DNA of 64,000 nucleotides from a virus. Its lineage: Duplodnaviria; Caudoviricetes. Where the stretch lies: the IMG/VR virus record IMGVR_UViG_3300032227_000993. One strand, written 5' to 3'. The number at the start of each line of letters is the position of its first letter. Position 1 is the stretch's first letter. The notes under the pieces were generated by a model. That model was not told where the DNA came from, did not search any database, and was given only the letters and a program-made list of their open reading frames with translations. A program made the translations under genes and the position numbers. Positions 18,369 to 43,836 of the stretch are shown one piece after another.

Positions 18369-19964
18369 TTATTTGGGGCTGGCTACTAAGCGTACATTTT
18401 GGGCTATATCGCCGCGGTATCCGTGTGTTGATTCCGGGTCATCTGCCCCGGTATTGATGGGTTTGTTTGTGCGCATATTGAATGCGTGTACATTTACAGA
18501 GCGGCCGTAGCGTTGCTCTAAGTCTTGCCATACTCGTTGGCCACCTGGACTTTGATATTTGTCGCTGACTAATGTAAGGCCTTGATTTTTAACTAACCAA
18601 GCATACAAGTCGGCAGCACGGATGGGAGCTTGTGGGCCAGCATAAATTCCAAAGATTTCAAATGCGTGTGGCTTGTTGTGCCCACTGATAGTCATTTGAC
18701 TAATGCGTGTTTTGGGATCGTACACAGAATAAGCAGAATCTTTTTTGTCGTCCCATTTGTAAACTTCGTAAGCTCCTATTCGGCCCACTTTAGTACCAAG
18801 CAGTTTTTGTTCTTTACCTGGCGGCACCGGCTTGCCTCTGTTTACCAATCCCGAGGTGTCTTGATTTTTAGGTTTGATGTTGTTATGATAAATCACTTCG
18901 CTTAACTCTCGTTCTTTATTTACACGAGCCATGTGTTGGGCATAAGTTTCTTGATCTTCTTCTGCGGACAAATCTGGTACATACGCCGGAATAGATTTAA
19001 TTCCTAATTCTCTTGCGGCCACAGCACGATGATTCCCATCAATCACCCATCCGTCATTATCTACTACAATTGGTTTATTTTTAATATCTTGTGCTGTGAT
19101 ATCACGAACATGATCGTAGTCAACGTAACTAATTTGTCCATAAGGACTGCCGTCTTTTTCAAGATGTAAACTACTAACAGGTACAGTAGTCAACTCCCAT
19201 ACAGGATGATTAGTTATTGAAGAATCAATTTTAAACTCACCTTTAGGGTGTATCTTTTTAATGTAAGACAGTATCTGCTTGCTTAACTCTTCGTTAGTCT
19301 TTTTTTTACCCGACTTCATGTTGGCGCACCAATGATACATTTTGGCACGTTCACCTGAACTATTCTTAGCCTTACGGCGTAAGTCTGTTACTGAACCTGA
19401 ACAACTGGCTCCAGCCTTTTTTACTCTACCTGGGCGACTTTTACCTTTAACTTTGCCATCAGCAAAGTTTTCGTCAATGTGTGGTTTTAAAAAAGTGTCA
19501 GCAAACTTTTTACATAACGCTTTGAGTTTAGTATTTTCTGTGATAATAGTAACAAACTTGTCTTGTGTATTTTCTTGCGTGGGATCTTTGTAGCCGCAGT
19601 AAGCAACTTTGACACCTTTGCTGTTTAACAAATCAGCACAGGATTCTTCATAGCGGCTATCCATTCTGTCCGAACATGGACTCAGCGTAGTAACTACAAT
19701 ACTGCCCTTGGGTAGTTCGCCGTACTCCGCTTCGTATTTGTCGACAGCGGCACGTTCTGCGTGTACACGATAGTCGCCATACACGTAGTTTAATCCTGTG
19801 ACCAATCTGCCAGCAGGATCAATCACAGCGGCCGCTACTGAACCATAAAAGTCTGGATTATCTTGTTTACCTTCTAAAATAATTTCGCATAGCTCGACCA
19901 GCACCGCATCTAATTGTTCGTTGCTATACTTTGTTTTAGGAACAGTAAAATCATTTAATATCAT
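18369..19964 (-). CDS. Polyprotein: Zn-deaminase domain, basic Cys module, ParB-like domain, unknown C-terminal domain
   Basis: HAE...TLSPC...C deaminase motif; VIDGNHR ParB/Srx motif. Confidence 0.75.
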   Translation of the reverse strand: MILNDFTVPKTKYSNEQLDAVLVELCEIILEGKQDNPDFYGSVAAAVIDPAGRLVTGLNYVYGDYRVHAERAAVDKYEAEYGELPKGSIVVTTLSPCSDRMDSRYEESCADLLNSKGVKVAYCGYKDPTQENTQDKFVTIITENTKLKALCKKFADTFLKPHIDENFADGKVKGKSRPGRVKKAGASCSGSVTDLRRKAKNSSGERAKMYHWCANMKSGKKKTNEELSKQILSYIKKIHPKGEFKIDSSITNHPVWELTTVPVSSLHLEKDGSPYGQISYVDYDHVRDITAQDIKNKPIVVDNDGWVIDGNHRAVAARELGIKSIPAYVPDLSAEEDQETYAQHMARVNKERELSEVIYHNNIKPKNQDTSGLVNRGKPVPPGKEQKLLGTKVGRIGAYEVYKWDDKKDSAYSVYDPKTRISQMTISGHNKPHAFEIFGIYAGPQAPIRAADLYAWLVKNQGLTLVSDKYQSPGGQRVWQDLEQRYGRSVNVHAFNMRTNKPINTGADDPESTHGYRGDIAQNVRLVASPK

Positions 19965-21337
19965 TCACAATTCCAACGACGGCGTGCCTTGCAAATTGCT
20001 TTATCTGGAGTCTTGGCACAGCTGATACTGTGCATTTTCATTTGGCCTCGACTGCGTGAGCAATAACTCTTGCGACGCTTGCTGGCCTTTGAACCCTTCT
20101 TTAACTTGCTGGGTTTGGTAGTCACAGCCGTCTTCAACTTGCTACCTGGGTGTTCTCTGCGATAAGAATTAACAGCCTTTTGACTCATGCCATCTGTCTT
20201 GTCTTTCTTGTTGGCCTTTTGCCAATCTTCCATGACAGGTTGTGTGACAGCAAACACATACAATTCATCATCAGTTAGGCTTTCTAAATCTTCCCAAATT
20301 ACATCTGCGTCTACTTGATTGCGTACGGCCAGTGTGTTAATAATTGATTCGATAAGATCAAACTCTTCGGTCATAGCGTCTACTATGCCATTTTCGTGTT
20401 GGCTAACCATGTAGTCCATGACTGCCACCACCATGCCTTTGGCCTGTGATATTTTGGCTTGACACCACTCAGGTAAATTTTCGTTATCGTAAATGGCTTT
20501 TTCTAAATGTGTGCTGACCCGTTGTATTGTTTGCAGATCGTTTTTAAACATACCTGCTTCGTCGTTGTATTCAGCATTATCAATATCTTCGCCAAATCTA
20601 GCACGATAGCTGTTGGGATCCATACTGGATTTACTACCAATAACTTTGTGTCCTTCGCCGGCAAGCAACATATCGTACATCATTTTAATAATTACCAAAG
20701 GACTATTTAATTGATCTACCCGATCATAAAAGAAAGCAATTTTTTCAGGTTTCATTCGCTTAACTGGCTTGCCCTTGATTAATTCTTTGGCCCGGGCTTT
20801 TAGTGTAGGCAAATCACGAATGCGCTCTAAACTTTTTAGGTCAGCAGGTGTAAAATTATCATGTTCACCATTTATTTCTGTGCTTTCATTTTTGGCAGTC
20901 TTGGCAGCATCTTTCCAGGCCTGTGCTGTAGGTGCTTTAGGGCTGTCAGCATCTCTGCTGGTGCCGGCCTTTTTGCGTTTGTTCACGTTGTAATACAATC
21001 CGTGCTTGGCCTCTTCTTCTACACTTTCGTTAGGCACACAGTTACGCACTTGTTTGCCTGTGGTAGCACTTTTCTTTGTACCTGCCGCATGATAGCCTGA
21101 CCAGCATTTGGTAACGCCATTTGAATCCTTGGCACCTTTTTTGATCTCCATAATGCTACCATGTGTTTGACACTTGCCACAGTCGGGGCAAGTCATTTCC
21201 ATTACAGACATACTTTCATTGGTTTTTTTCTTGCCAGCACAGTGAGCCTTTTGACTAAAACCTTTGGGATGTGAGCAGTTGATACTCTTCTTGTACTTGC
21301 GACTCCATTCTTCATTTAGAATTTCATTAATTTGCAT
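19961..21337 (-). CDS. Polyprotein of small Lys/Cys-rich modules
   Basis: INCSHPKGFSQKAHC, CPDCGKC, KCWSGY...RNCV, and a C-terminal RRKSYCSR...ARRRWNC module. Confidence 0.75.
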   Translation of the reverse strand: MQINEILNEEWSRKYKKSINCSHPKGFSQKAHCAGKKKTNESMSVMEMTCPDCGKCQTHGSIMEIKKGAKDSNGVTKCWSGYHAAGTKKSATTGKQVRNCVPNESVEEEAKHGLYYNVNKRKKAGTSRDADSPKAPTAQAWKDAAKTAKNESTEINGEHDNFTPADLKSLERIRDLPTLKARAKELIKGKPVKRMKPEKIAFFYDRVDQLNSPLVIIKMMYDMLLAGEGHKVIGSKSSMDPNSYRARFGEDIDNAEYNDEAGMFKNDLQTIQRVSTHLEKAIYDNENLPEWCQAKISQAKGMVVAVMDYMVSQHENGIVDAMTEEFDLIESIINTLAVRNQVDADVIWEDLESLTDDELYVFAVTQPVMEDWQKANKKDKTDGMSQKAVNSYRREHPGSKLKTAVTTKPSKLKKGSKASKRRKSYCSRSRGQMKMHSISCAKTPDKAICKARRRWNCE

Positions 21338-23225
21338 TTTTAAACTCCTGGTATTCTTTCATCATACGCTTTACAACACCATCGGCACGTAGCTCTTGTG
21401 GGCGGCCTTGGCTGTCTGTATTTAACAATAATTTGTTGGCATTTTTTCCTGTGGCACCTGGGCGTACATCCACAGTAAGTGCCATTTCAAAACGTGGATC
21501 GTCGGCTTGTGCGGCGGTAGGAATGTAGCCCGAAGCTTCGTTTAATTTGGTTTCCATCACCGGCATTTTTTTAATATCTATCTTTGATTCGGAATATTTT
21601 ATTTTAAGCACTAATTTAAAATCTTCAAAATCTTTTTGCGAAGCAAATAAAAGTTGATTATTTTTTGAATAGTTATGCGTACCACTATCAATTTTAAGTA
21701 TGTAATGTGTATTTGTTTCGCCAATATATTCGGCAATACCGTAAAAAATAATAATATCGCTAGCGGTTTGATTGGGCATTGCTAAAATACATTTATTATA
21801 TTTTTTAGGTTCTGGTAAATCTTTTTTGTAGTTGTTTAACCATGTATTAAAATCTGTTGACTCTTTAGGATTTGTTGATTCAAACATTTTAGCGGGCCAT
21901 AAATCATCACTTCTTATGCTAAACCCAATTTCATTCCACGGATTTTGCGCGGCTTCGTTTAAATCTACACTTGAAAACAATTCTGGATGAGCATGACCAT
22001 ATTCACGCATCAAGATACCAGCTCTAGCATTTGCTTCGTTTTCCCAGGCACTACCAGTGTCGCCTGCGTGGCCTGGAACATCTTCACGCTCGTGTTGGTG
22101 TTGATGAGTAAGTTCATGAGCAACCGTGCGAAGAATATCCATAAGATGGCGATTGGCCAAACTCACTTCTAATTGATTGGTTTCAGAATTGTAACGACCA
22201 AATGTTTTAGCACGTTTAGACCATTCTGGATCACGTTTGATACGCAAGTCTGGTGTGCGTTCTAATCCAAGTTGATCAACACAGAACTGTACAAAATCTT
22301 GAAGCGTATCCTCTTTACTAGTAGGCTCTGCGTCTTCGTTGGCAAATTCACAGGTGCTGGCGTTGGTACCGTCGGGCGTAATTCCAACTTCGTCTAGGTG
22401 TTCTTCGTTGGCAAACATACAAGTACTGGCGCTAACGCCATCGGGTGTTACTCCTACTTCATCTAGATAATCTTCGCCATAGCCGTAATTGACAACGTTA
22501 CGAGTCTTGAGTCTTTCTTTAAGACTTAATTCAGCATCATGCATTTCGTTGCGAGCTTTGAATAATTTTTCTAACAAGCCGTTGTGTCTTAACATTTTGA
22601 AAACCAAGTTTTCAACACTGAACTCGCCTGCTGTGTGCAGGCCTGACTTGCGCATTTGTCCAATGCGTTGAATTAGATCTTTGATAGAACCAAGATCTCC
22701 TGAAGCAACGGTTTGTTTAATGCGGTCTGCGTAATCTTCAAACTTGCTAGTAACACTGATATCATTGGTTTCAGATTTATGACGTTTGGGAATTTCTATC
22801 CACTTGTTGTGTAGTACGCTGTAAATGCCTTGACTAACGTGCGGTTCATTGGCATCCTGTACATACAGTTCAACTGGGGTTCCGCCAATGGTAATTTTAT
22901 GTTGTGTATTGTATTGAAACTTTTTAGCATTAAATAATTCACGATACACATCAATGTTGTAGGTTGGAAAATTTATTACCAAGTGCAAATCAATGTCGCT
23001 TTCTGGTGTATAGGTGTACGCTGCGTTTGAGCCAGAAATAGTAATGTCTACAAGATCTAAATCAGCCACACCCAGTGATGTTTTAAAATCATCTGCTATT
23101 GCCAATAATGCGTCGTGTACATCTGGGCGTAGTTGTTCGTGTTTATCCCAAAGTCTAGGGTTTAATTTTGTATTAAATTTTACAGCATCGGCTAAATTGA
23201 AGTTTTCAAGCTCAAAAATATTCAT
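21327..23225 (-). CDS. Polyprotein: Pol-beta-type nucleotidyltransferase, HExxH metallopeptidase-like domain, further modules
   Basis: SGSNAAYTYTPESDIDLHL (GS..DxD) with VELYVQD; VAHELTH. Confidence 0.75.
   Translation of the reverse strand: MNIFELENFNLADAVKFNTKLNPRLWDKHEQLRPDVHDALLAIADDFKTSLGVADLDLVDITISGSNAAYTYTPESDIDLHLVINFPTYNIDVYRELFNAKKFQYNTQHKITIGGTPVELYVQDANEPHVSQGIYSVLHNKWIEIPKRHKSETNDISVTSKFEDYADRIKQTVASGDLGSIKDLIQRIGQMRKSGLHTAGEFSVENLVFKMLRHNGLLEKLFKARNEMHDAELSLKERLKTRNVVNYGYGEDYLDEVGVTPDGVSASTCMFANEEHLDEVGITPDGTNASTCEFANEDAEPTSKEDTLQDFVQFCVDQLGLERTPDLRIKRDPEWSKRAKTFGRYNSETNQLEVSLANRHLMDILRTVAHELTHQHQHEREDVPGHAGDTGSAWENEANARAGILMREYGHAHPELFSSVDLNEAAQNPWNEIGFSIRSDDLWPAKMFESTNPKESTDFNTWLNNYKKDLPEPKKYNKCILAMPNQTASDIIIFYGIAEYIGETNTHYILKIDSGTHNYSKNNQLLFASQKDFEDFKLVLKIKYSESKIDIKKMPVMETKLNEASGYIPTAAQADDPRFEMALTVDVRPGATGKNANKLLLNTDSQGRPQELRADGVVKRMMKEYQEFKNAN
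22333..22466 (-). repeat. Two in-frame 69-nt (23-aa) tandem units
   Basis: LDEVGVTPDGVSASTCMFANEEH / LDEVGITPDGTNASTCEFANED. Confidence 0.85.
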
Positions 23226-23242
23226 AGTATACTATTTACCGT

Positions 23243-23281
23243 AAAAAACAAAAGCCGCTTACATTGCTGTAGCGGCTTTTG
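23243..23281 (-). terminator. Intrinsic terminator
   Basis: AAAAGCCGCT...AGCGGCTTTT stem followed on - strand by GTTTTTT. Confidence 0.85.
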
Positions 23282-23310: not shown

Positions 23311-24243
23311 TTACTTCTTCTTTTTCTTGCTTGCTGTTACAACCTGTGCTTTAGGAGCAGCTGGTGCTGGAGCAGGTACATCAACTGGGGCTGCAATACC
23401 TGTAGCTGGAACTGCTGCTACAGCCTGTTGAGCACTGGCATTACTCAATGCTAGGGCGTGTAGATCTTTGTACAGTTGATCTTGTGCCGCAAAGTCAAAC
23501 ACGTATGTGCCTGTGTGCTTGAGCAAAACACGTTTGTCCACCCAAATCTTACCACCTAGATCACGCCAGTTTTCACAGAATGTCCAATCTTCTGAATAGT
23601 AACGGTTCTCACGTACCGCTGTATCAAAGTAGGTCTTCATGTAAACATTCAACTCTGGTGGGAGACCAATGTCTGAGTTAAAAGGCTTAACTGCTGGATG
23701 GGCATTTAACTTCTCAAACACATGACGCTTCATTAACAAGAAGCCTGTGCCTGTTTTAGTTACTTCTTGTAGGCCATCTGGACCTTCTTCTGCGCCGTCA
23801 AAGCCGTTGACGCACCATTTAACTGGTAAGGATTTCATGGGATACAATCCACCAATCACATCCACGTCACGATTCAACATGACCAACAGGTGCCATGGTT
23901 CCCAACCAATATCGGCGTCAATAAACATCAAGTGTGTTGAGTCTGGATTTGAGAGGAACTTGGCTGTAAGTGTGTTACGAGCACGTGAAATCAATGACTC
24001 GTTTGTCATGGTTTCCATGGTCCAATCAATGCCCAATTGACGGGCAGTATTGGCCCATTTGATGTAACTCATAAATGTTGATTCAGTTAACATCCCACCA
24101 TAACAAGGCATGCAAATGTGCACGCGGGTAGTTTTTAAGAAATCAATGTTGACTTGTACTTGACCTTGCTGTGGAGCAGCAGGAGTTTCTGCTGTAGGAG
24201 TTGCTTGTGCTACTGCTGTTGCTGCTGCTTGTTGTTCTGACAT
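23311..24243 (-). CDS. GT-A fold glycosyltransferase-like protein with Ala/Pro-rich termini
   Basis: ICMPCYGG, ESLISRARN, LMFIDADIGW (DxD), GTGFLL, SEDWTFC. Confidence 0.75.
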   Translation of the reverse strand: MSEQQAAATAVAQATPTAETPAAPQQGQVQVNIDFLKTTRVHICMPCYGGMLTESTFMSYIKWANTARQLGIDWTMETMTNESLISRARNTLTAKFLSNPDSTHLMFIDADIGWEPWHLLVMLNRDVDVIGGLYPMKSLPVKWCVNGFDGAEEGPDGLQEVTKTGTGFLLMKRHVFEKLNAHPAVKPFNSDIGLPPELNVYMKTYFDTAVRENRYYSEDWTFCENWRDLGGKIWVDKRVLLKHTGTYVFDFAAQDQLYKDLHALALSNASAQQAVAAVPATGIAAPVDVPAPAPAAPKAQVVTASKKKKK

Positions 24244-24314: not shown

Positions 24315-25136
24315 TTAAATGCGACTAGGAGGCCAGTAGGATTCAGTTTTGTCTTTTTCGTTAATGTAGTTGGGAGCTAAATCTTCGTCAAATACAGCAT
24401 AGCTGTTTACAGCACGAGCTTCTAGGACCTGTATTGATTCTAGCATTTTAGCCAACTTTTCTTTGTGCTCGCGCTTTACTGGAGCAGGAGTGTCCATTAC
24501 ATTAGCGTCTAATGGTTTTTGTTTGTACACAAAATCTTTGGCTTGTTGAGCTGGAAGTAATCTAGCATCAAAAATATCTTTTAAATTGTCATCAGGTTCA
24601 CCGTACAAATCTGTAATAATTTGCTCACGGTCAGCGTTGTTGCCAGCTGTGTACATTTTACGGATTTCTGTAGCAGAATTAGCATCCTTACCTTTGACTT
24701 TGAAGTTGACTGTAGGAGTTACCATCACATAAGCGTGTTTGGTCATTGGCTTTACACCTTTACCATCAGCTGGGTATGGTTGCATGTAACTTGGAGTGCC
24801 ATCTTTTTTAACTCCAAATTTAAATCTAGCATCCTCACCCATGTCTTTTTGAGATACAGCAAAAATTAATACTGTATTTTCTGGATCAGCAATATCTTTG
24901 GTAATTTCTTGTGCCTGATATGGATTTCTAACTTGAACAACGCGACTGCTAGGAATACCAGTTTTTGTTATCATAGCAAGTTTGTCACCAAAACTAAATG
25001 GACTTGTTACCGGTGCCTGTACTGCAGATGTGGCAATGTAAACATCATCAAACTGACTGATCAGCTGATCATAACTGGCCTTGTGGCCTTGGTGAAATGG
25101 TTGAAATCTTCCGGGATATATTACAACTGTGCGCAT
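24315..25136 (-). CDS. Cytidyltransferase-like (HxGH) nucleotidyltransferase
   Basis: YPGRFQPFHQGH and SATEIR. Confidence 0.8.
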   Translation of the reverse strand: MRTVVIYPGRFQPFHQGHKASYDQLISQFDDVYIATSAVQAPVTSPFSFGDKLAMITKTGIPSSRVVQVRNPYQAQEITKDIADPENTVLIFAVSQKDMGEDARFKFGVKKDGTPSYMQPYPADGKGVKPMTKHAYVMVTPTVNFKVKGKDANSATEIRKMYTAGNNADREQIITDLYGEPDDNLKDIFDARLLPAQQAKDFVYKQKPLDANVMDTPAPVKREHKEKLAKMLESIQVLEARAVNSYAVFDEDLAPNYINEKDKTESYWPPSRI

Positions 25137-25596: not shown

Positions 25597-25965
25597 TTAA
25601 AATACTACAGTGGCAGAATTGATGGTACCAGCAGTAAATTCAGTCACAGCGGCCCGAAGCCAAACAAAATTACCTACCAGGTTAACTGCTACAGTATCAG
25701 TGGTTGGTACAGAAGCATTACCATAATCAGCAATGTCAAACCAAGCAGCTTGTTCGTACAAACTTTCCAAGCTGCCTTGGAATTTGATTACACCAGTAAA
25801 TCCTGTTGTTTCAATTATTGCTGTTTGTATGCTACCTTGTCCGCCATAGTAATTTGCTGCTGGAATAGCATTGCCAATAAAAGCACTAGATGTGCCATCG
25901 TAATTACCCGACGGTGTTCCATAAGTTGTCAGCGGTAAAAATGTTTCTGTAGTTAATGTTGCCAT
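25597..25965 (-). CDS. Hypothetical beta-rich protein, possibly virion
   Basis: 122-aa ORF with TAAATA 7 nt before its ATG. Confidence 0.65.
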   Translation of the reverse strand: MATLTTETFLPLTTYGTPSGNYDGTSSAFIGNAIPAANYYGGQGSIQTAIIETTGFTGVIKFQGSLESLYEQAAWFDIADYGNASVPTTDTVAVNLVGNFVWLRAAVTEFTAGTINSATVVF

Positions 25966-25971
25966 AGTCTA

Positions 25972-26688
25972 TTATTTAGCTGGAATAATACTAAGAGTTT
26001 TTCTTAATAAACCGGGTCTAATTAGGGACAGCATTACCAGTAAACTTTCCCCGGTGTGATCAATAAAAAAATAATCTTGTGTTCTGTAAAGTTCTCGACC
26101 AAGCCAATATGTAACTGATGGGCTTAACCGTATGTCTGTTTGATTGATAAAAAACTTATTGATATTGTGCTTTTCTTCTGGTGTTAGTTTAAGTATTTTA
26201 AAATAACTCCTGTGTGTATGACGGGGATTTTTTAATTTGACAGTATCTTTGGGACGATTAACCACCGCTTCTGTGTAGGTTTTGTATTTGAGTTCGTGAT
26301 CAAGTGATAGCGTTTCTATCAATGATACATGGTTAGTGTAGACCCACGCATGATCCACGCTGGTTACTAATTTAAATTCGACGTCTGACTTTATCAATTG
26401 ATCTGCCAACTGATGTAAATTCAGCACAGCCACATCTGTAATATCTCGCATACGTTTGGCCACAATAGTGGCCAGTTTGCTTCCTGTTCTCTGTGCTTTA
26501 TTACTGAGCAAGCGTTGATGACTAATTTCGCGCCAATACCTACGGCGTTCAATCATGGTATCTATGTATTCATGATTAACTTGTTTTAGACAGCTTACTT
26601 CTTCCAGCATAAACGATATGCAATATCGCCACCGGTTGTAAAATAAACTGTCCTTGACAACAGGATTAAATTGTAGGGTCGATGCCAT
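25972..26688 (-). CDS. Hypothetical protein
   Basis: 238-aa ORF overlapping the end of clpA. Confidence 0.7.
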   Translation of the reverse strand: MASTLQFNPVVKDSLFYNRWRYCISFMLEEVSCLKQVNHEYIDTMIERRRYWREISHQRLLSNKAQRTGSKLATIVAKRMRDITDVAVLNLHQLADQLIKSDVEFKLVTSVDHAWVYTNHVSLIETLSLDHELKYKTYTEAVVNRPKDTVKLKNPRHTHRSYFKILKLTPEEKHNINKFFINQTDIRLSPSVTYWLGRELYRTQDYFFIDHTGESLLVMLSLIRPGLLRKTLSIIPAK

Positions 26689-28945
26689 CGATTACAATGA
26701 TACCGTTTTCGTCAACCGTTGGCAACTGACCCACACTCACAATAGTAAATTCAATTTTGTCATCAACCATGTTTGCGTGGATGTCACAGTCGCTTAGTCT
26801 TTCAAACAACATTTTCTTAGATAACGGAACACGAATCAGCTCGTCAATTTTACGATTTAACGGACGGGCACCCATCTTGGCATCGTAACCTTTGTCTGCC
26901 AACATATCAATCACAGATTCTGTAAGTGTCAGGCGAATGTTTTTAGCAGCAAGACTTGACTGTAACTGATCAACAAACTTGAGCACAACTTTCTTAATAG
27001 CAAGTGTATCAAGTTTCTTAAAGCGACAAATTTGGTCAATACGATTGCGTAGCTCTGGCTTGAAGAAGTCTTTCATGGCTTTTTCTTCAGATCCAGTTTT
27101 TTCTAATACCTGTCCAAATCCAATGTTATTGTTTTCGTTATCTCGAGCACCCAAGTTACTGGTCATGATGATAATGGTATTTTTTAAGTTGACAGTTTTA
27201 CCGTTGGCACTGGTAATTCTGGCTTCATCTAACATTTGTAACATGATGTTTATGACATCTGGATGTGCCTTTTCAATTTCGTCAAACAAAATAATCGAGT
27301 ATGGGTTTTTGCTAATGTCACTGATAAGTTTACCGCCACCTATGTTGCCATCTTCAAAACCTACATAGCCTGGAGGAGCACCGATCAGACTACTAACTGT
27401 GTGCTTCTCCTGATACTCACTCATATCGTACTTTAACAGTTGCATGTCCAAGTTCTTGGCCAACAACTTGGCCAGTTCAGTTTTACCTGTGCCTGTTGGT
27501 CCCAAGAACAAGAAACTTGCTATTGGACGATTATCGTTGCCAATACCTGAGAAGTTAATGTACACCCGCTCCAATACAGAGTCTACAGCTTCATCTTGGC
27601 CGTAGAGTTTTTCTTTGATGTTGCTTTCTAAATTAATAATGTCAGCAGATTTTTCATTTTGTAATCGGTCTACCGGAACAGCAGTAACACGACTCAACTG
27701 CTCCATGATCATATCTTTGGTAACAGTGACATTGCCTAAATCTTTGACACGTTCTTTGGCACAGGCGCCATCCAACAAGTCGATTGATTTGTCTGGGTTC
27801 TTGCGATCGTGTATGTAACGGCCGCTTAGTTCTACTGCGGAAGTGATGGCATCAGTATCAATTAATACATTGTGGAACAACTCCAAGCGTGGGCTAAGAC
27901 CAATTAGGATTTGCTCTGTGACTTCTGGTGTTGGTTCATCAATACTTACACGATGGAAGCGGCGCATTAAGGCACGATCCTTTTCAAAGCTCTCGTAGTA
28001 TTCTTCCCAAGTGGTCGAAGCCACAACTTTGAGTGTGCCTTTGGTGATACTTGGCTTTAACATATTGGCAAAGTCCAGTGTACTTTGTGTACTTGCGCCG
28101 GCACCCTTCATGGTGTGTGCTTCGTCAATAAACAAAATACAGTTTTTCTTAGTTTCAAGAGCTTGGATGACCTGTTTAAACTTCTCTTCAAATTCACCAC
28201 GATACTTTGATCCGGCCAACAACGAGCCAATCTCCAGACCCCATACTTCGTGTCCTTTTAAGAACTCAGGAACACGGCCTGCGTTGATCTCCTGGGCAAG
28301 TCCTTCCACAATGGCAGTTTTACCTACGCCAGGGTCGCCAACCATGAGTACGTTGGCCTTGAAGCGACGTGCTAACACAGTGATCATTTCATCAAGCTCT
28401 TCGCCACGTCCAATCATGGGTTCAAGGCGATCTTCGTGTGCCATCTTGGTAAGATTAATACAGTATTCTGTAAGTATCTCGTCGGCTTGATTATTGGTTA
28501 ACTTGATATCTTTGTAGTTGTAGTTCTTGTTGTAGTGTTCCATGAACTCAATTTTTTTAACGCCGTATTTTAATAAAAAGTAATGAGCATGACTATTATT
28601 TTCTGCCATCATGGCAAGATACAAATCGCCAGTGGTCACTGTTTTGCGGCCTGTAAATAAAACCTGTGTAAGAGCACGATTGAACACACGTTCTAAGCCA
28701 TGTGTCTTTTTAGGTTGATATCCTGCCGGAGGACTTTTTAGTGCTGGCAGTGATGTGAGATAACCATCGAGCTCTAAATCAAACATTTCCACATTAGTGC
28801 CAAACGATGTTAACACCGCGTTGAATGGACCATGTCGTAACAGAGATAACAATAGATGTTCAGTCAATACATATTCGTGTTTGTATTCTCGTGCCAACTT
28901 GCTGGCGGTTTCAATCAGTTGTTCAATTTCTGGGTTATTCTGCAT
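26666..28945 (-). CDS. clpA: ClpA-type AAA+ unfoldase
   Basis: Clp N-domain (TEHLLL), two Walker A motifs (GDPGVGKT, GPTGTGKT), IGF loop (NIGFG), GARPL; no middle coiled coil. Confidence 0.92.
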   Translation of the reverse strand: MQNNPEIEQLIETASKLAREYKHEYVLTEHLLLSLLRHGPFNAVLTSFGTNVEMFDLELDGYLTSLPALKSPPAGYQPKKTHGLERVFNRALTQVLFTGRKTVTTGDLYLAMMAENNSHAHYFLLKYGVKKIEFMEHYNKNYNYKDIKLTNNQADEILTEYCINLTKMAHEDRLEPMIGRGEELDEMITVLARRFKANVLMVGDPGVGKTAIVEGLAQEINAGRVPEFLKGHEVWGLEIGSLLAGSKYRGEFEEKFKQVIQALETKKNCILFIDEAHTMKGAGASTQSTLDFANMLKPSITKGTLKVVASTTWEEYYESFEKDRALMRRFHRVSIDEPTPEVTEQILIGLSPRLELFHNVLIDTDAITSAVELSGRYIHDRKNPDKSIDLLDGACAKERVKDLGNVTVTKDMIMEQLSRVTAVPVDRLQNEKSADIINLESNIKEKLYGQDEAVDSVLERVYINFSGIGNDNRPIASFLFLGPTGTGKTELAKLLAKNLDMQLLKYDMSEYQEKHTVSSLIGAPPGYVGFEDGNIGGGKLISDISKNPYSIILFDEIEKAHPDVINIMLQMLDEARITSANGKTVNLKNTIIIMTSNLGARDNENNNIGFGQVLEKTGSEEKAMKDFFKPELRNRIDQICRFKKLDTLAIKKVVLKFVDQLQSSLAAKNIRLTLTESVIDMLADKGYDAKMGARPLNRKIDELIRVPLSKKMLFERLSDCDIHANMVDDKIEFTIVSVGQLPTVDENGIIVIDGIDPTI

Positions 28946-31383: not shown

Positions 31384-32007
31384 TTATGCTCCTAGTACGT
31401 GTTTAGCGTGTTCGTAATGCTTTTTACGATCTTCTAATCCAATCGTGCCACCGTTGATACGTTTTGTCATGGTGAGAATATCATCTGTGTCGGCGTATTG
31501 GTTCAAGTTGTTTGCTTCCCAGAACCAGCAAGCTGATTGGATAGCACCTTCAAATGTTTCTAAGAAAGCTGGAACGTCTTCTACAGGCATTTCCAAACTG
31601 TCAGCAAATGCTTGATAGTTTGACTTACCAGTCAACTGGATTAGGCCACGACCGCAATAACGGAATCCATCACCCGAAGCTTCGTCACCGTTGCCCATGC
31701 GATTGGCATAAACGCGATTGGCAATTAGTTCTGCCTTGTTAGGCTGACTCGCATACTGTTCAGCAATAGCATCATTTGGAAAATATTTAGGAAATACCTT
31801 GCGTAGTGTGGCCGCACGATAGTTTAAATTTTCGTGTAGTGCTGTAAAGCCGCCTGACTCGTGAGCGCATTGTGCTAAGAAAGCCGCTTCACGCTGTGGT
31901 GTGTTGATATCGTAGTCAGGAAGAATTTTGTTCAGTGCTTCCGTCCAGTGATCCAGGTGTGGATTACCAGGTAAAATTTGTGCTAATTGGTCTTGTGAAA
32001 TTGCCAT
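31384..32007 (-). CDS. GH19 chitinase-like endolysin
   Basis: FLAQCAHESGGF, ENLNY, RGLIQLTG..NY, TKRINGG..GL.DR. Confidence 0.93.
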   Translation of the reverse strand: MAISQDQLAQILPGNPHLDHWTEALNKILPDYDINTPQREAAFLAQCAHESGGFTALHENLNYRAATLRKVFPKYFPNDAIAEQYASQPNKAELIANRVYANRMGNGDEASGDGFRYCGRGLIQLTGKSNYQAFADSLEMPVEDVPAFLETFEGAIQSACWFWEANNLNQYADTDDILTMTKRINGGTIGLEDRKKHYEHAKHVLGA

Positions 32008-36895: not shown

Positions 36896-37804
36896 TTAGC
36901 CAGCTGAATAGTAAGCCATACCAGCTCCGGTACTGGATGCGTCGCCTGTGATTGTGTAACTAGACGCAGCAATAGCATAGTTAGCACTAGGGTCTTTTAT
37001 TTCGTTAGTAAATGTGTATCCTAGAGAACTGCCTGGATCAAAAGCAATGTCCCCAGCGTTGACCACAGGTGCTATTTTGAAATAACTACCTGTTATTGGT
37101 GGCAGGAATGAAGCAATATTAGGTGGAGTAAATGTTGAAGTGTAAACAGCATTGCCTACAGTATATCGAGTATTACGAGTTTTGCCTGTATAGTTGTATA
37201 TACTATTGCCGCTGTCGTATCTACTAAAGGCCTGAACGCCATACATACCTATGGTAGCTCCGGTGGCAGAAGGATTAGTAATACTAGCAGAAAAAGAAGT
37301 AGTGTATGAAAGTGTTCCGTTGACCCATAAGTTAAGTGTGCCAGACGAGCGAGTTACTGCCAAATGGTTCCAGGTATTTTGTAGAATAAAGTTACTGTTA
37401 AGCGGATCAGCTGTGCCAGTGTTAACAACTGTGCCGTAGGCACCAGTGGTGCCTTTCATACTGGCTACCAACTGCCAATGTACTCCGTCCGTGCCGTAGG
37501 TAGCACTATTGTTTAGTAATCCTAACCCTAAGTCAGCATCAAAAATAGTATTGTTGCCACCCAAGGTCCAAATGCCTGTTAACTGTTGGGAGCCAGTAAA
37601 GTACGCCCAAGATTCAATACAAAAGTCACCTACACCAGGATACCAGGATGCCCAGGTGGTATTAGTAGTACTGCTATTGCTACCGGACATATACAAACTA
37701 CAACCTGGATTGGTAAATGGTTGGCTATTGTCCACCGACATCATCCATAATGCCGGAGGCGGATTAAACCCCTGTACATCAGAAAAGCTAGGACTAATAA
37801 GCAT
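36896..37804 (-). CDS. LamG/concanavalin-A-like lectin domain protein (tail-associated)
   Basis: DFCIESW, NTWNHLAVTRSSGTLNLWVNG, RYTVGNAVYTSTFTPP. Confidence 0.8.
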   Translation of the reverse strand: MLISPSFSDVQGFNPPPALWMMSVDNSQPFTNPGCSLYMSGSNSSTTNTTWASWYPGVGDFCIESWAYFTGSQQLTGIWTLGGNNTIFDADLGLGLLNNSATYGTDGVHWQLVASMKGTTGAYGTVVNTGTADPLNSNFILQNTWNHLAVTRSSGTLNLWVNGTLSYTTSFSASITNPSATGATIGMYGVQAFSRYDSGNSIYNYTGKTRNTRYTVGNAVYTSTFTPPNIASFLPPITGSYFKIAPVVNAGDIAFDPGSSLGYTFTNEIKDPSANYAIAASSYTITGDASSTGAGMAYYSAG

Positions 37805-40800
37805 TATGTGTAATCCGTTGATGAACCTAACACCAACAAGTTACCACCATTGTTTAATATTGAGTAACTCAATGTATTAATAAATCCTGCGATGATTGGA
37901 GGCTGTACACCGTTGGTCCAACGTACTGCGGTATTGGCACCGTTGATCTGGAATGCATCGTATGGTGTGTACAACGGAGTGCTTGCGCCACCTGGATCCA
38001 ACAACAATGTTACCACAGCAACAGCTGAGTTAGAAATAGTCAAGTTAGCCAAGTTAACACCCCAGTTGGCTGTAGCGGCAGAAATATCTACATAAAAAAT
38101 TTGTGAACTTGTGCAATCATAACTGTTGACGGCATTACTTGTTACTGTAGAAGTAGCAAATGTAGTTACGGCGCTGGTTACAGGATTGTAAGTAAACTCT
38201 TTGGTGGTGGTGTTGTAGAACAACTGATTAGTAGTATTACCTGAATCGCTGCGAACATTATTAAAGAATACACTGGCATTACTAAATGTTGCCGCAGTAG
38301 AGTTAGCCACGGACATAGTGATGTTGCCATCACTACTAGAAATACTTACATTACTTGTACCGTTGCTGATAGAGTTAGCTGAACCGCCACCGCCTGCGCC
38401 GTATGTCAACTCTTTTGTAGTAGTGTTGTAGTAAACAGCGTTGGTTACGTTACCTGTATCGTTACGTACTGGCGCCGCATAGAAGCCGGAATTACTGGCA
38501 TTAACAGCGGTACCTGAACCGTTGAGGATAATGCTGTTGGCTACTTGTGTAGTTTGCCCTGCAAAACGACCAATAGCAATACTATTAATACCTTGGACGT
38601 TGGCGCCAGCACTAGTTCCAATAGCAACAGCGTTAGCACCTTGTGTGGTTAGGCCGGCTCCAGTACCAATAGCAACAGCAGAATTACCCTGAGTATTTCC
38701 TGCGGCGCTAGCTCCGATAGCAATACTTTGTGTGCCCTGTGCCCCAGCTGTGCCACAGGCTTGATAACCGATGGCAATGGCACCAGAGCCCGATCCAAAG
38801 TAACTAGTCTGGTAACCCATAGCAATAGCACCTGTGCCTGACCCACTAAAGGCAGCACTATCACCAATACTGATAGCTCTAGTTCCCGACGCTGTTCTAG
38901 CCGCGGTTGTTCCGATTGCTACTGCGCCTAACCCTTGGCTAGTTGCTCCAGCAAGTTGTCCAATAGCAATGGCAGTATTACCTTGACTGGTTCCAGCTGC
39001 ACCAAATCCAATTGCTACAGCATTTTGACCTTGTGTCCCTGCGCCAGCGTTTGCTCCAATAGCAACCGACTGTAGTCCTTGTGTTGTTGCTCCGGCATTG
39101 TAACCCATAGCCACTGCTTGTGTGCCTTGGGCTGCATTACCAGCAAGTGCTCCTACGGCCACAGCTCCTGAAGCTTGTGTGTTACCGCCAGCATTGGTTC
39201 CGATAGCAATACCGTTTTGAGCTTGTGAAGCGTAACCAGCATTAAAGCCCAAGGCAACTGTGTAAAGGCCTTGTGTTATTGCTCCAGCATTGTAACCTAC
39301 AGCAACAGCGTTGGCACTTTGTGTAGTGGTACCTGCTTGGAAACCAATAGCCACAGCAGTAGTGCCTTGTGTGTTACCGCCAGCTAAGTAACCAACAGCT
39401 ATTCCAAAATTGCCTTGTGTACTATTCCCAGCGGAATAACCAATGGCAACAGCGGCGCCACCTTGCGTATTAGCGGCAGCCTCTCTACCAATGGCAATAC
39501 TATTAATTCCTTGAGTGTTGGCGCCAGCATTTAGACCGATAGCAACAGAGTTGCCTCCTTGTGATGAATTTCCTGCCAAGCGACCAATAGCAACTGCTTG
39601 AGTACCTTGACTTGTTAAACCTGCTTGCCAACCTATAGCAATACTGCTAGCACCTTGCGTAGTTGCGCCCGCACCTTGACCAACAGCAACGCTTTGTGCG
39701 CCTTGTGTTGTAAGACCGGCTTGCCAACCAATACCAACAGCACCAGAGCCTTGACTGCTATTACCTGCCAGATAGCCAATGGCAATAGCCTGAGTACCTT
39801 GTGTATTGGCGCCAGCTTCGCGACCAATAGCAATGGCATTAACACTTTGAGAATTAGAAGCTGCCTGGAAGCCGATAGTAACAGTAGTATTTGATAAATT
39901 AAATGATTGTGTGCCAGTAATACCCATTGTAATGTTAGCATTTGCGGCGACCGTTACATTACTTGTACCGTTGGTTAAACTTGTTGGAGTTCCAGCCAAG
40001 CCAGTGAGTAGTGCTCCGTTACCAATAAAATAGTTGCCACTGATATTACCAGTGGCACTTACCAGACCAACCGCAGAAATATTGCCGCCTGTGACATTGC
40101 CTGTGGCACTTACTAGTCCACCGGTTCGAACATTGCCTCCTGTAACATTGCCTGTGGCACTTACCAAGCCAGCAGTAGTGATGTTACCTGAGATAACATT
40201 ACCTGTAGCACTTACTAATCCAGTGACAGTCAACCCTGTGTTGGCAAATACACCAACAATATTAGCAGTAGAGCCGCCACCAGCAATAACTTTGACTTCT
40301 TTGCCACTAGTGCCAGCACCAAGAATTAAGTTACCACCGTTGTCGCCTGCGCCATTGCCAAATGTGTACAAGTAAGCATCGTTGGCTCGGACACTGGTAC
40401 CAAGCGCATTAGCTGATAAGCCATCGTAGGTTGATGACGCAATACCCAAGTCAACATAATATGTTGTGTTGGTACCATTATCAGCAGTGGCCACGTAGTC
40501 TGCACTTGCGCCAGATCCAGAGTTGATATTCTGGAAGTTTAACTGTGCGTAATCAGGATAGTTAGCACTAAATTGTGTTACTGTAGCTGGCAAGTTGGCA
40601 AAGCCGCTTGAGATACCTGCGTATAGTGCGCCAAATCCAAACGAGTCGCCAAAGAAGCTACCTTGATTACCTGTGATTTGATTAATGTTGCCTGGTAGTG
40701 TTACATTGCCTGTGACTACCAAGTTACCAATAGTAGCGTTACCCGACACACCTAGGGTAGCACTATTAACAGCACCACTAACAGCCAGGGCTGATAAGTT

Positions 40801-43800
40801 GCCTAAACTGGTAATATTAGGTTGTGCGTTGGTGGTTAGTGTGCCGCCAATCGCGCCCGAGTAAGTTGGCAAGTAAGCGCCTACTTCGGTATTACCATAC
40901 ATACCGGTCAACTGACTACCGTTACCTAAGAAATATGATCCTGTTATATTACCAACAGCACTTAAATTGTTACTTACGGTCCAAGTATCAGTGGCACTGG
41001 CCCAAGTAAATGTAGCATATTCAGCATTGGCTGGTCCAACTCCAAAACCAGCACCGTTGGCATAAATTGCCGCGTTGGCATTATTGGCCACGTTGAATAC
41101 CAAGTCATTGATAGAAACGTTGTTACTATCAACAGTAGTTGTTGTTCCTTGAACTACTAGGTTACCAGTGATGAGAGCATTACCAGCTTGAATATTACCT
41201 GTGTAGGTTGGCAAGTAAGCTCCTACCTGTGTATTGCCATACATACCTGTAAGATTACTACCGTCACCAGTAAAATATCCACCGATAACATTACCTATGA
41301 CGACAGCGTTAGCTTCAACGTTAATACTGCCACCAAAATAGCCATCAAGTAAAGAGCCAATACTTTCGTTTGCTATGATATTGTTAGCACTAATATCGCC
41401 AGCGGTTGTGAATCCAGCTGTGTCGTTGCCAGATGCTAGATAAAGAGAAACGTCAGCATTGCCATAATTAGCTGGCAGTCCTGTAATGTTACTACCATCA
41501 CCATACAAGTAACTACTGACTAAATTGCCAGTGGTTACAATATTGCTAGTGGTACCGCTTTCTAAGAACGTAGAAACATTAGAGTTAGTATATACTTGAC
41601 CTTGTAAGGTTGTTACATTACTGGCAACGTTGGCAACATTGCTATCTGTATTTGCTAAACTTGTAGTTAGATTAGCCACGTTACTATTTGTATTAGCAAC
41701 ATTGGCATTTGTATTTGCTAAACTTGTTGTCAAGTTAGCTACGTTACTGTTTGTATTTGCTAAGTTATTGTTTGTAGTAGATAGATTTGTAGTTAAGTTG
41801 GCTACGTTGCTGTTAGTGTTAGCAACGTTGGCATTTGTGCTGACAATGGCATTGCCCAAGGCCGCGCCTTGAATCTCAACGTTGGCCAAGTCGGCATTAG
41901 TGTTAGCTAAACTTAATGTTAAATTAGCTACATTACTATTTGTATTAGCAACATTGGCATTTGTATTTGCTAAACTTGTTGTCAAATTAGCTACATTACC
42001 GTTTGTATTTGCTACATTACTATTAATGCCAATAATAGTATTACTGGTTGGCAAATACGCTTCAACATTGGCATTGCCATATCCGCCAGCGGCAGTTACT
42101 ACGTTTTGAACAAAACTTGTGGTTGCTACCAAGTTTGAATTATCCGAATTACCTTGTGTAGTTGCTATTAAGTTACCAGTTACTGTTAGATTGGATATGT
42201 TACCCGAGTAGGTAGGCAAGTAAGCAGCAACATCAGCATTGCTATAGCCAGCAGGTAAGCCAGAGATAAACGCACCGTTACCTAATAAGTAAGCACCACT
42301 AATATTGGCAGTGGTTGTAATGTTACCAGTGGTACTGATTATGGCATTGGTGCCTGCGCCCAAGAATGATTGTGTATTAGCGTTAGTGTAAACTTGACCT
42401 TGTAAAGTGGTAACGTTACTGGCTATGTTGGCAACATTACTGTTGGTATTGCCTTGTGCGATTGCTAGATTGGCAACATTGCCGTTTGTGTTAGCTACAT
42501 TGGAATTGATGCCAATGATAATGTTACTTGTTGGCAAGTAAGCTTCTACGTTGGCATTACCATAGGAGGCTGGAAGTCCTGTTAGCTGACTACCGTTACC
42601 AATAAAATAGTTGCCGGTCACATTACCAGTGGCACTTACTAATCCAGCTGTTAAAATATTGCCAGCAGATATGGTATTGCCAACTGTAGCAGTTTGTGTA
42701 GCGGCATTGTATGTAAAGCCAATGTCCGATCCAGCATTGCCATTATTGTTATATATTACCCAAGTGTTACTACCAGGAACAACTAAGTTACCTGAGATAT
42801 TACCTTGGAAGTTACCGATAAAAGTTGTGGCTGTGACTGTGTTGCTAACATTTATGTTTGTAGCATAGATGTTGCCAGTGGTGTTGGCATTGCCAAGATA
42901 TGCTGATACGTTAGCATTAGCATAAACTTGTCCTTGTAGTGTTGTTACATTAGATGCTACATTAGATACATTAGAATCTGTGTTAGCTAAACTTGTTGTT
43001 AAATTTGCTACGTTACTATTTGTATTAGCTACATTTGCATTTGTATTAGCAAGAGCGTTGACTCCTTCTGTTGTTGAGATCTGCAACTGAGAAATACTGT
43101 TGGTATTATTTGCAGTAACTAGTGTTAAGTTAGCTAAGTTACTGTTAGTATTAGCTACGTTAGCATTGATAGCAATAATTGTATTACTAGATGGTAAGTA
43201 TGCTTCAACGTTAGCATTACCATATGCGCCATTAATATTAGCTGCATTAATATTTGATAATAATGATCCATTACCAATAAAATAGTTAGCAGTTACATTG
43301 CCGCCAGCAACTATGTTACCAGCGGTTGAAAATTGACCAGCAGTAAGATTACCTGTGTATGTAGTCAAATAATCTGCTACATTAGCATTGCCATAGTTAC
43401 TAGCACCGGCGGCAGTAGTTTGAACTGTGCCGTCAGCAAAGGTGATCCCAGCGCCAGGAGTAGCATTAGACACAACAACATTACCAGCAATAATATTGGC
43501 AGTGGTGGCAATGTTGGCTGTTTGTGGAGCAGCTGTGTTAGAACTCAACACAACAGGAACGTTGTTAACTAATAAATCGTTGTTTGCGGTTAAACTTACA
43601 GGAATTGAATTCAAATAAATTGTGTTGTTACTTACCCACAAGTCTTTCCATTGATTAGTACTGTTACCCAAACTTAATGTCACATTAGAAGCAGGAATAA
43701 CGTTAGTGGTTACCGCTGTTAAATTTACATTGCCAGTAGTAATGCCAGTGAGTTGGCTACCATTACCAAGTATGTAATTTCCAGTGATGTTACCTGTAGC

Positions 43801-43836
43801 TGATACGCCTAAAATTCCGTTTAAATTAATTGACAT
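37804..43836 (-). CDS. Giant tail fibre/adhesin (2010 aa)
   Basis: G/N/T/A-rich, Asn-rich heptad coiled coils, YGNxxVxxYL junction motifs, YadA-head-like repeat array. Confidence 0.85.
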   Translation of the reverse strand: MSINLNGILGVSATGNITGNYILGNGSQLTGITTGNVNLTAVTTNVIPASNVTLSLGNSTNQWKDLWVSNNTIYLNSIPVSLTANNDLLVNNVPVVLSSNTAAPQTANIATTANIIAGNVVVSNATPGAGITFADGTVQTTAAGASNYGNANVADYLTTYTGNLTAGQFSTAGNIVAGGNVTANYFIGNGSLLSNINAANINGAYGNANVEAYLPSSNTIIAINANVANTNSNLANLTLVTANNTNSISQLQISTTEGVNALANTNANVANTNSNVANLTTSLANTDSNVSNVASNVTTLQGQVYANANVSAYLGNANTTGNIYATNINVSNTVTATTFIGNFQGNISGNLVVPGSNTWVIYNNNGNAGSDIGFTYNAATQTATVGNTISAGNILTAGLVSATGNVTGNYFIGNGSQLTGLPASYGNANVEAYLPTSNIIIGINSNVANTNGNVANLAIAQGNTNSNVANIASNVTTLQGQVYTNANTQSFLGAGTNAIISTTGNITTTANISGAYLLGNGAFISGLPAGYSNADVAAYLPTYSGNISNLTVTGNLIATTQGNSDNSNLVATTSFVQNVVTAAGGYGNANVEAYLPTSNTIIGINSNVANTNGNVANLTTSLANTNANVANTNSNVANLTLSLANTNADLANVEIQGAALGNAIVSTNANVANTNSNVANLTTNLSTTNNNLANTNSNVANLTTSLANTNANVANTNSNVANLTTSLANTDSNVANVASNVTTLQGQVYTNSNVSTFLESGTTSNIVTTGNLVSSYLYGDGSNITGLPANYGNADVSLYLASGNDTAGFTTAGDISANNIIANESIGSLLDGYFGGSINVEANAVVIGNVIGGYFTGDGSNLTGMYGNTQVGAYLPTYTGNIQAGNALITGNLVVQGTTTTVDSNNVSINDLVFNVANNANAAIYANGAGFGVGPANAEYATFTWASATDTWTVSNNLSAVGNITGSYFLGNGSQLTGMYGNTEVGAYLPTYSGAIGGTLTTNAQPNITSLGNLSALAVSGAVNSATLGVSGNATIGNLVVTGNVTLPGNINQITGNQGSFFGDSFGFGALYAGISSGFANLPATVTQFSANYPDYAQLNFQNINSGSGASADYVATADNGTNTTYYVDLGIASSTYDGLSANALGTSVRANDAYLYTFGNGAGDNGGNLILGAGTSGKEVKVIAGGGSTANIVGVFANTGLTVTGLVSATGNVISGNITTAGLVSATGNVTGGNVRTGGLVSATGNVTGGNISAVGLVSATGNISGNYFIGNGALLTGLAGTPTSLTNGTSNVTVAANANITMGITGTQSFNLSNTTVTIGFQAASNSQSVNAIAIGREAGANTQGTQAIAIGYLAGNSSQGSGAVGIGWQAGLTTQGAQSVAVGQGAGATTQGASSIAIGWQAGLTSQGTQAVAIGRLAGNSSQGGNSVAIGLNAGANTQGINSIAIGREAAANTQGGAAVAIGYSAGNSTQGNFGIAVGYLAGGNTQGTTAVAIGFQAGTTTQSANAVAVGYNAGAITQGLYTVALGFNAGYASQAQNGIAIGTNAGGNTQASGAVAVGALAGNAAQGTQAVAMGYNAGATTQGLQSVAIGANAGAGTQGQNAVAIGFGAAGTSQGNTAIAIGQLAGATSQGLGAVAIGTTAARTASGTRAISIGDSAAFSGSGTGAIAMGYQTSYFGSGSGAIAIGYQACGTAGAQGTQSIAIGASAAGNTQGNSAVAIGTGAGLTTQGANAVAIGTSAGANVQGINSIAIGRFAGQTTQVANSIILNGSGTAVNASNSGFYAAPVRNDTGNVTNAVYYNTTTKELTYGAGGGGSANSISNGTSNVSISSSDGNITMSVANSTAATFSNASVFFNNVRSDSGNTTNQLFYNTTTKEFTYNPVTSAVTTFATSTVTSNAVNSYDCTSSQIFYVDISAATANWGVNLANLTISNSAVAVVTLLLDPGGASTPLYTPYDAFQINGANTAVRWTNGVQPPIIAGFINTLSYSILNNGGNLLVLGSSTDYT
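38551..39852 (-). repeat. 27 tandem ~16-aa beta-roll repeats
   Basis: Consensus (T/S)QGxxAVAIGxxAGxx counted by hand; 1302 nt = 27x16+2 aa. Confidence 0.9.
41600..42025 (-). repeat. 21-aa Asn-rich coiled-coil repeats
   Basis: ANTNANVANTNSNVANLTTSL repeated several times; boundaries approximate. Confidence 0.8.

Follow-up and report, generated by a model that had tools for sequence, protein, structure and literature searches.

A Pol-beta nucleotidyltransferase fused to a minimal zincin: the probable constant head of a multi-effector polyvalent protein in a phage

The IMG/VR virus record IMGVR_UViG_3300032227_000993 (Duplodnaviria; Caudoviricetes) was analysed over a window of 64,000 nucleotides, which covers 64 kb of a 361-kb contig and thus belongs to a jumbo phage. 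On its minus strand, the window carries a gene (21327..23225) that forms a single uninterrupted open reading frame with an ATG start and encodes a protein of 632 amino acids (aa). We here describe this protein, which begins with a Pol-beta-superfamily nucleotidyltransferase (NTase) domain and continues with a linker, a metallopeptidase, a variable insert and a small C-terminal module. Two further minus-strand genes follow downstream and overlap each other and the NTase-headed gene. The second gene (19961..21337, 458 aa, overlap of 11 nt) encodes basic Cys-rich mini-modules and a C-terminal DUF6321 (Pfam, E 1.5e-8), and the third gene (18369..19964, overlap of 4 nt) encodes a zinc deaminase (dCMP_cyt_deam_1, E 2.7e-7), a basic Cys module, a ParB-like domain with matches to ParB PHROGs, and an unknown domain.

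The NTase region comprises residues 1-237 (22515..23225, minus strand), with a conserved N-terminal peptide MNIxELxxF, a core at approximately residues 26-150 and a four-helix bundle at residues 155-241. Three motifs are read in the protein: ISG65S66-NAAYTYTPES-D77ID79, V118E119LYVQD124 and H370ELTH374. To assess their conservation, we scanned a set of 121 proteins consisting of the window protein and its 120 best matches, and we observed GSNA[AG][YF]xYTxxSD[IV]D in approximately 116 and HExxH in all 121 of them. By this count, the occurrence of the NTase and HExxH motifs is far beyond chance. In an alignment of 115 NTase sequences, the residues S64, G65, S66, N67, A68, D77, D79 and E119 are invariant, and the same is true for K102, N106, R192, E201, N206 and K210. 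The catalytic motif G65-S66-x10-D77-I-D79 (22989..23033, minus strand) is found without change in 115/115 homologues, which bears out the intact GS-x10-DxD of the original prediction. The third acid had been placed there at the final aspartate of VELYVQD; this placement has to be corrected, as D124 lies outside the columns that are at least 90% conserved and the conserved carboxylate is E119 in the strand VELYV (22869..22871, minus strand). Loss of the catalytic acids among homologues would have argued against the assignment; D77, D79 and E119 are instead invariant in the 115 sequences. As the motifs are near-universal in the 121 proteins and invariant in the alignments, they are under strong selection, and the NTase of this main clade is probably active.

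The assignment to the Pol-beta NTases is based on several features. The signature hG[GS]-x9-13-[DE]h[DE]h on a strand-loop-strand element corresponds to ISG65S66-x10-D77ID79LHL, the third carboxylate E119 is located within the strand 116-124 in both alignment and model, and the domain has the alpha-beta-alpha-beta-alpha-beta core fold. In the AlphaFold2 model that spans residues 1-255 (mean pLDDT 81), the order is helix, strand, GS loop, strand-helix-strand, hairpin and then the four-helix bundle, here at residues 155-241. The Pfam match to NTP_transf_2 stays below threshold (20.0 bits; cut-off 21), PHROG 36119, a family of unknown function, covers residues 15-235 (E 3.7e-45), and no significant match was found when the PDB was searched by sequence, either with the single protein or with profiles of the NTase (A1) and the peptidase (A2). 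The best PDB matches of the NTase model in Foldseek are ANT(9), CdnE and ANT(4'), with E-values of about 2e-4 and TM scores of only 0.2-0.27. Over residues 17-150, the top structural matches are NTases, and the nearest core structures are MNT enzymes. Membership in the superfamily is safe, and the assignment stops at this level: the structural comparison with the CD-NTase and MNT clades that had been proposed as a check confirmed the superfamily and did not single out one clade.

These structural matches bear on what the NTase might do. The CD-NTase clade is represented by CdnE among the best matches, at the low TM scores given above, and the domain might be a CD-NTase/OAS-like enzyme whose cyclic or linear oligonucleotides serve as decoys or disturb the signalling of host CBASS, Pycsar or Thoeris systems; no result discriminates in favour of this function, and we consider it quite unlikely. 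An ANT-like enzyme that acts on a metabolite or an antibiotic-like compound is still less probable and would surprise us. The global superposition with ANT(9), ANT(4') (KNTase) and AadA is poor (TM 0.23-0.27, root-mean-square deviation 12-17 Å) and does not discriminate in its favour, the phage NTase occurs in a viral and polyvalent context in which nothing points to small-molecule substrates, its family is exclusively viral, and its fusions to protease, ART, deaminase and lysin payloads are ill-suited to metabolite modification. The phage NTase shares 15-20% identity with MntA-type minimal NTases of HEPN-MNT systems (PDB 2rff, 1ylq, 8xeo, 7bxo); no match to MNT enzymes above thresholds was found at the sequence level in the Pfam and PDB profile searches. 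In contrast to the MNT enzymes, the phage NTase has a core extended by the four-helix bundle and has no HEPN partner beside or fused to it; the adjacent genes encode the DUF6321 protein and a GT-like protein. We also considered whether the helical bundle itself is a HEPN-like RNase. An R192-x4-H197 motif is present, but Rx4-6H is not a conserved feature of the bundle: H197 is not conserved in the family and the homologue ORF156 of cyanophage S-CREM2 does not have it, so this candidate was rejected. The BFVD and ESM Atlas neighbours are all uncharacterised viral proteins.

Behind the NTase, residues 238-299 (22329..22514, minus strand) form a linker in which the motif [YH]LDE-VGxTPDG...FANE is duplicated in tandem. 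TRF detects the repeat at 22333-22466 (minus strand) with a period of 69 nt and 1.9 copies that are 75% identical, and this repeat doubles the LDE-VGxTPDG...FANE motif. Among the relatives, VGxTPDG is found in 53/258, and 29 of those 53 contain two copies.

Residues 300-418 (21972..22328, minus strand) form a minimal zincin metallopeptidase, identified from the model, Foldseek and weak Pfam matches. The HELTH that had been noted further along the protein proved to be the zinc/catalytic motif H370-E-L-T-H374 (22104..22118, minus strand) of a confidently modelled zincin fold: the AlphaFold2 model of residues 296-632 has a block-mean pLDDT of at least 94 over residues 306-415, and its layout is an N-terminal helix, a three-stranded sheet, the HExxH helix and a Glu-bearing helix. 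A candidate third ligand lies within E395-N-E397. The alignment of 103 peptidase sequences shows no variation at H370, E371, H374 and N396, and near-invariance (at least 90%) at E395 and E397. Foldseek matches the model to abylysin (4jiu, E 2.5e-3, probability 1.00) and also to IrrE (3dti), selecase and Wss1. The compact fold is thus common to minigluzincins, IrrE/PprI (M78), Wss1/SprT and the phage peptidase, although the structural E-values are weak (2.5e-3 and worse). Pfam scores are below threshold for SprT-like (17.3-18.2 bits; cut-off 25.6) and for Peptidase_M78. The peptidase is not a member of SprT/Wss1 (PF10263) by its gathering score, and the conserved columns include no His at the third-ligand position of HExxHxxxxxH, whereas they do include the Glu helix. 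Compared to IrrE/ImmA, the GAF-like or HTH partners are absent.

The variable insert (residues 419-560; 21546..21971, minus strand) is common only to the closest relatives in the BLAST coverage map and is modelled at low confidence (pLDDT ~30-40). In other relatives, this slot holds sigma-70 region 4, ParB_N, HAD phosphatase or DUF6934. It is followed by a C-terminal module of ~70 aa (residues 561-632; 21330..21545, minus strand), which was delimited by BLAST and alignment and reads LNE-ASGYIPT..DPRF.MALTVDV.PG.... The identity of this C-module reaches up to 86% where the enzyme blocks reach ~55-60% in the BLAST mapping, and G566, Y567, D586, P589 and A596 do not vary across 140 sequences. The C-module is present in one copy per locus and is nearly confined to the NTase-headed family; elsewhere, we found it in 24 short proteins, most of them encoded on contig fragments. 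When the C-module (A3) and the NTase domain (A1) were modelled as a complex, the score of 0.01 was uninformative either way. With the C-module as query, a feature search of the ESM Atlas gave only unnamed viral clusters at 0.76, which is below the useful range.

The family of NTase-headed proteins is large. In an exhaustive phmmer search with residues 1-250, the number of representatives (clusters at 50% identity) was 3,895 at E<=1e-3 and, with the stricter limit of E<=1e-30, 1,312; a word-indexed search detected more than 1,689 relatives. All family members are viral wherever taxa are recorded. The first NTase residue lies at position 1-28 in 149 of the best 150 matches, and the proteins range from 256 to 2,288 aa. 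The BLAST map resolves three conserved blocks, namely the NTase (1-250), the peptidase (~278-425) and a block of ~70 residues (561-632). Hidden Markov models built from the conserved blocks were run over 259 relatives: 196/259 contain the NTase, the peptidase and the C-module, 34/259 the NTase and the C-module without this peptidase, 13/259 the NTase and the peptidase only, and 16/259 the NTase only. The C-module, present in 230/259 relatives, closes the polypeptide in 89 cases, and in 136 the chain runs on for more than 50 residues. Payloads and inserts in the relatives include cytidine/dCMP deaminase, Amidoligase_2, SLT, LysM, GH19, NUDIX, ParB_N, sigma-70 region 4 and HAD phosphatase, as well as ART-PolyVal (E 2e-59), a Pfam family that was defined on polyvalent proteins. 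The fusion of an NTase to an HExxH peptidase, as originally predicted, is real; it is not isolated but part of a larger NTase-zincin-module family. In three divergent NTase-headed proteins (P0222, P0248, P0256), we observed a further highly conserved non-catalytic module, DYDPNGPPPGPEFKPTMP...KGLGKHDFG...TTTDIDP, which is common to them.

The constant position of the NTase also fits a domain that is mainly a structural or packaging adaptor, which tethers variable payloads in the capsid and for which catalysis is secondary or vestigial. The location at or near residue 1 in nearly all of the best matches and the conserved N-terminal peptide agree with this, as does the pairing of NTase and C-module in the 34 relatives without the peptidase. 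It is further consistent with a degenerate subclade of four proteins (P0064, P0066, P0071, P0077), in which S66 is replaced by D/E and E119 by Q in 4/4, D77 by T/N in 3/4, and the helical bundle is gone in 4/4. These proteins keep the N-terminal peptide and have a peptidase and C-module at ~80% identity. As the subclade is intact elsewhere, the head has some role that outlasts the loss of NTase chemistry. However, S64-A68, D77, D79, E119, K102, N106, R192, E201, N206 and K210 are invariant in 115/115 proteins of the main clade, which argues for selection on enzymatic activity, and cultured phages encode stand-alone forms that carry no payload. The aligned residues indicate that the main clade clearly preserves the active site despite its degenerate relatives, and we regard a mainly structural role as improbable.

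We next consider the three overlapping genes of the window together. The same three genes overlap in the same order at two related loci (L003 and L004). At two other loci (L001 and L002), the deaminase is fused in-frame straight after the C-module, which results in a protein of 886 aa (P0024), and the deaminase part of the third gene is likewise found directly behind the C-module in P0028. Given these in-frame fusions and the shared trio, the three open reading frames of the window behave as a split polyvalent protein. The surrounding synteny is conserved and comprises DnaJ, ClpB, several small genes, the NTase head, the payload, ferritin and PolB. A megablast search with 12 kb around the gene found no relative among cultured-phage records.

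Several observations concern the parts of this cluster and its neighbours. The basic Cys mini-modules (residues 157-225 of 18369-19964 and the C-terminus of 19961-21337) recur at the C-termini or domain junctions of unrelated relatives, for example P0207, P0142 and P0068; they are 77-88% identical, far above the surrounding enzymes, and DUF6321 recurs likewise. The gene 26666-28945 (minus strand) encodes a full-length ClpB/ClpA-like double AAA+ protein, and in L001 and L003 the same ClpB/ClpA-like protein and a DnaJ gene are syntenic with the polyvalent cluster. A HIGH-motif cytidylyltransferase-like gene (24315-25136, minus strand), with a TAAATA 11 nt before its ATG, is located two genes upstream of the NTase head; between the two, 23311-24243 (minus strand) encodes a GT-A-like protein (phrog_1574) with Ala/Pro-rich ends. 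In the cyanophages S-CRM01 and S-CREM2, a 'cytidylyltransferase', which is a virion protein, is likewise located two genes upstream of the stand-alone NTase. A conserved NTase-cytidylyltransferase pair is not claimed here, since the window's cytidylyltransferase-like protein is not clearly homologous to S-CREM2 ORF154, which it matches only at E 0.05 and through the HxGH motif alone.

Stand-alone homologues of the NTase were detected by tblastn in cultured phages, namely in T4-like cyanophages, Maribacter phages and Lak megaphages. The fused form was not found among the cultured phages searched, where tblastn gave only stand-alone homologues covering at most 42% of the query. S-CREM2 ORF156 matches residues 20-236 (38% identity, E 2e-45) and ends at ...LSLK, which corresponds to the domain boundary. 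This protein has been detected by mass spectrometry in CsCl-purified virions with 6 unique peptides and 15.2% coverage, and ORF154 and ORF155 are listed alongside it among the virion proteins (PMC10665884, Table 3). The presence of ORF156 in virions supports carriage for the family, not for the window protein itself, and by analogy suggests that the window protein may be delivered into the host at infection. It had been proposed that a virion-delivered NTase could modify host proteins or tRNA or make decoy nucleotides; virion delivery gains from this homologue, while the decoy function has no discriminating support.

If the fused protein is packaged, its modules may be released by proteolysis. 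T4 gp21 and its homologues in giant phages cut head and internal proteins after Glu in a short motif, and the T4 internal proteins are loaded via N-terminal capsid-targeting sequences of ten residues (PMC9026906). A gp21-type Peptidase_S77 is encoded in 3/3 cultured homologue-bearing phages examined (S-CRM01, S-CREM2 and Maribacter phage Molly). Motifs of this type are located at the module junctions of the family: S-[LIVM]-x-E at the end of the NTase in 229/258 relatives, [ILV]-x-E before VGxTPDG in 52/53, and [LIVM]-x-E before SGYIP in 168/199. The N-terminal peptide is conserved as MNIx[EQ]L[DE]S[YF], and it contains an [ILV]-x-E-type site in 106/165 relatives with the canonical M[NSKT][IL] start, compared to a background of 13%. 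A phmmer search with three S77 proteins found no S77 protease in the window, which covers 64 kb of the 361-kb contig, and two IMG/VR relatives with a completeness of 51-61% likewise gave no Peptidase_S77. The case for packaging and processing of the fused protein is circumstantial and is made by analogy to T4.

The region upstream of the gene suggests when it may be expressed. A TAAATA element (23233..23238, minus strand), a candidate core of a T4-type late promoter, starts 13 nt before the ATG. The arrangement [CG]TAAATA, 6-9 nt and then ATG is kept in L001, L003 and L008. Within the window, TAAATA is found at most 45 nt upstream of 9/56 minus-strand genes, structural-like ones included, and it is biased towards the coding strand (40 on the coding strand vs 12 on the other strand). 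Enrichment is not seen for the full T4 late consensus TATAAATA, which occurs 4 times where 4.7 are expected. The element fits a T4-type late promoter and may function as one. Further upstream, a terminator-like hairpin (23243..23280, minus strand; RNA fold -22.5 kcal/mol, z -6.2), followed by the U-run UUUUGUUUUUU, closes the upstream gene 23311..24243. A consensus terminator scan of the upstream region found none, and the loop of this hairpin is longer than the 3-8 nt limit of the scan; comparable hairpins are present upstream in L001 and L008. In addition, we observed [CG]TAAATA at two preferred distances from the start codon, at about -29 with a Shine-Dalgarno leader and at about -12 without; examples lie upstream of 37804-43836, 51268-51750, 53169-54059, 56898-58970, 31384-32007 and 25597-25965. 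The spacing of about -12 suggests a subset of near-leaderless late transcripts.

The architecture of the family closely resembles that of polyvalent proteins, for which P1 DdrB/DarB and N4 vRNAP-like proteins are examples of the phage type (Iyer, Burroughs, Anand, de Souza & Aravind 2017, PMC5512222). In these proteins, many unrelated enzymatic and small non-catalytic modules are likewise combined in one polypeptide with a minimal zincin as hub, architectures differ widely from one close relative to the next, and the proteins are predicted to be delivered together with the DNA. They share the payloads ART-PolyVal, ParB, lysozyme/SLT and deaminase with the NTase-headed relatives. Multiple unrelated domains and variable architecture are found in the relatives of 256-2,288 aa, and the model of residues 300-418 has the features of the polyvalent zincin, namely a three-stranded sheet together with N-terminal, HExxH and Glu-bearing helices. 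The metallopeptidase of this fold is the commonest hub domain of polyvalent proteins, and the 2017 survey reports Pol-beta NTases from firmicute conjugative elements only, in polyvalent proteins where they are fused to ArdC-N, and counts them among the domains absent from phage-type polyvalent proteins (PMC5512222). The NTase head is new relative to the phage-type domains of that survey (PMC5512222). The available part of the 2021 jumbo-phage survey by the same group covers RlaP, CCA-adding NTases and SprT/ArdC-like peptidases and does not mention the NTase-zincin-module combination. In contrast to the surveyed polyvalent proteins, the phage proteins described here start, at their very N-terminus, with an NTase of another kind that includes a helical bundle, and they have a family-specific module of 70 aa and a metallopeptidase with only weak, sub-threshold Pfam matches; furthermore, the polyprotein is split into three overlapping genes in the window phage. 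Within the polyvalent proteins, the family forms a phage-only subclass that is very abundant and whose head of NTase, zincin and module is fixed.

A second comparison concerns T4 Alt and the internal proteins IPI-III, for which the proposed logic is the same: they are made late, packed into the head, trimmed by gp21 after Glu and injected. Relatives of the window protein carry ART domains like that of Alt, and one homologue is virion-associated. However, the NTase-headed protein shows no homology in sequence to either Alt or the internal proteins, its targeting peptide and cleavage are predicted by analogy, and the proposed reaction is the transfer of a nucleoside monophosphate (NMP) instead of ADP-ribosylation.

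Taken together, we consider it probable that the gene encodes the constant head, composed of NTase, minimal zincin and ~70-residue module, of a phage polyvalent multi-effector protein that acts by the following mechanism. The domain identity, the conservation of the catalytic residues, the family architecture and the synteny described above are the observations on which this reading is built. The payload, consisting of the DUF6321 modules, the deaminase and the ParB-like domain, would have been split off into the two overlapping downstream genes. The cluster would be transcribed late from the TAAATA-type promoter, and the protein would be incorporated into the capsid, as proposed from its virion-detected stand-alone homologue; the conserved N-terminal peptide may serve as a targeting signal. 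It would then be cleaved into modules at the [ILV]-x-E junctions by a gp21-type prohead protease and/or its own metallopeptidase, and the pieces would enter the host together with the DNA. There, the NTase may move an NMP onto a host macromolecule, most likely a protein, as MntA does, or else an RNA 3' end, and may thereby disarm a defence or redirect host machinery. A protein acceptor is favoured because the nearest core structures are MNT enzymes and because the ART-type sister payloads modify proteins.

The main alternative to a protein acceptor is RNA 3'-end modification. The NTase would then be a MenT-like tRNA toxin or a TENT/CCA-adding/RlaP-like enzyme for tailing or repair, so that either host translation is blocked or phage and host tRNAs damaged by defence nucleases are repaired; we give this alternative a low probability. 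Somewhat less unlikely, and still doubtful, is that the NTase head, the N-terminal peptide and the C-module form an unrecognised chassis for capsid loading and delivery into which arbitrary effectors are plugged, with the NTase NMPylating a host protein or nucleic acid at infection. The invariant G-Y-I-P-T would then perhaps be a recognition element for the protease or for packaging, or a site of self-NMPylation, and the chassis might be widespread among T4-like and jumbo phages that live uncultured in freshwater and marine habitats; both are parts of this tentative proposal and share its probability.

Polyvalent proteins are regarded as the phage proteins that encounter host defences first and, to our knowledge, almost none of them has been studied experimentally. 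The family described here combines a fixed three-part head with swappable payloads in approximately 3,900 clusters at 50% identity. Cyanophages that can be cultured and a Maribacter phage encode stand-alone homologues, one of which is virion-associated, and this opens a direct experimental route. This route leads to the questions of what a virion-associated Pol-beta NTase targets, how polyvalent proteins are loaded and cut, and whether the head may serve as a general handle for cargo delivery.

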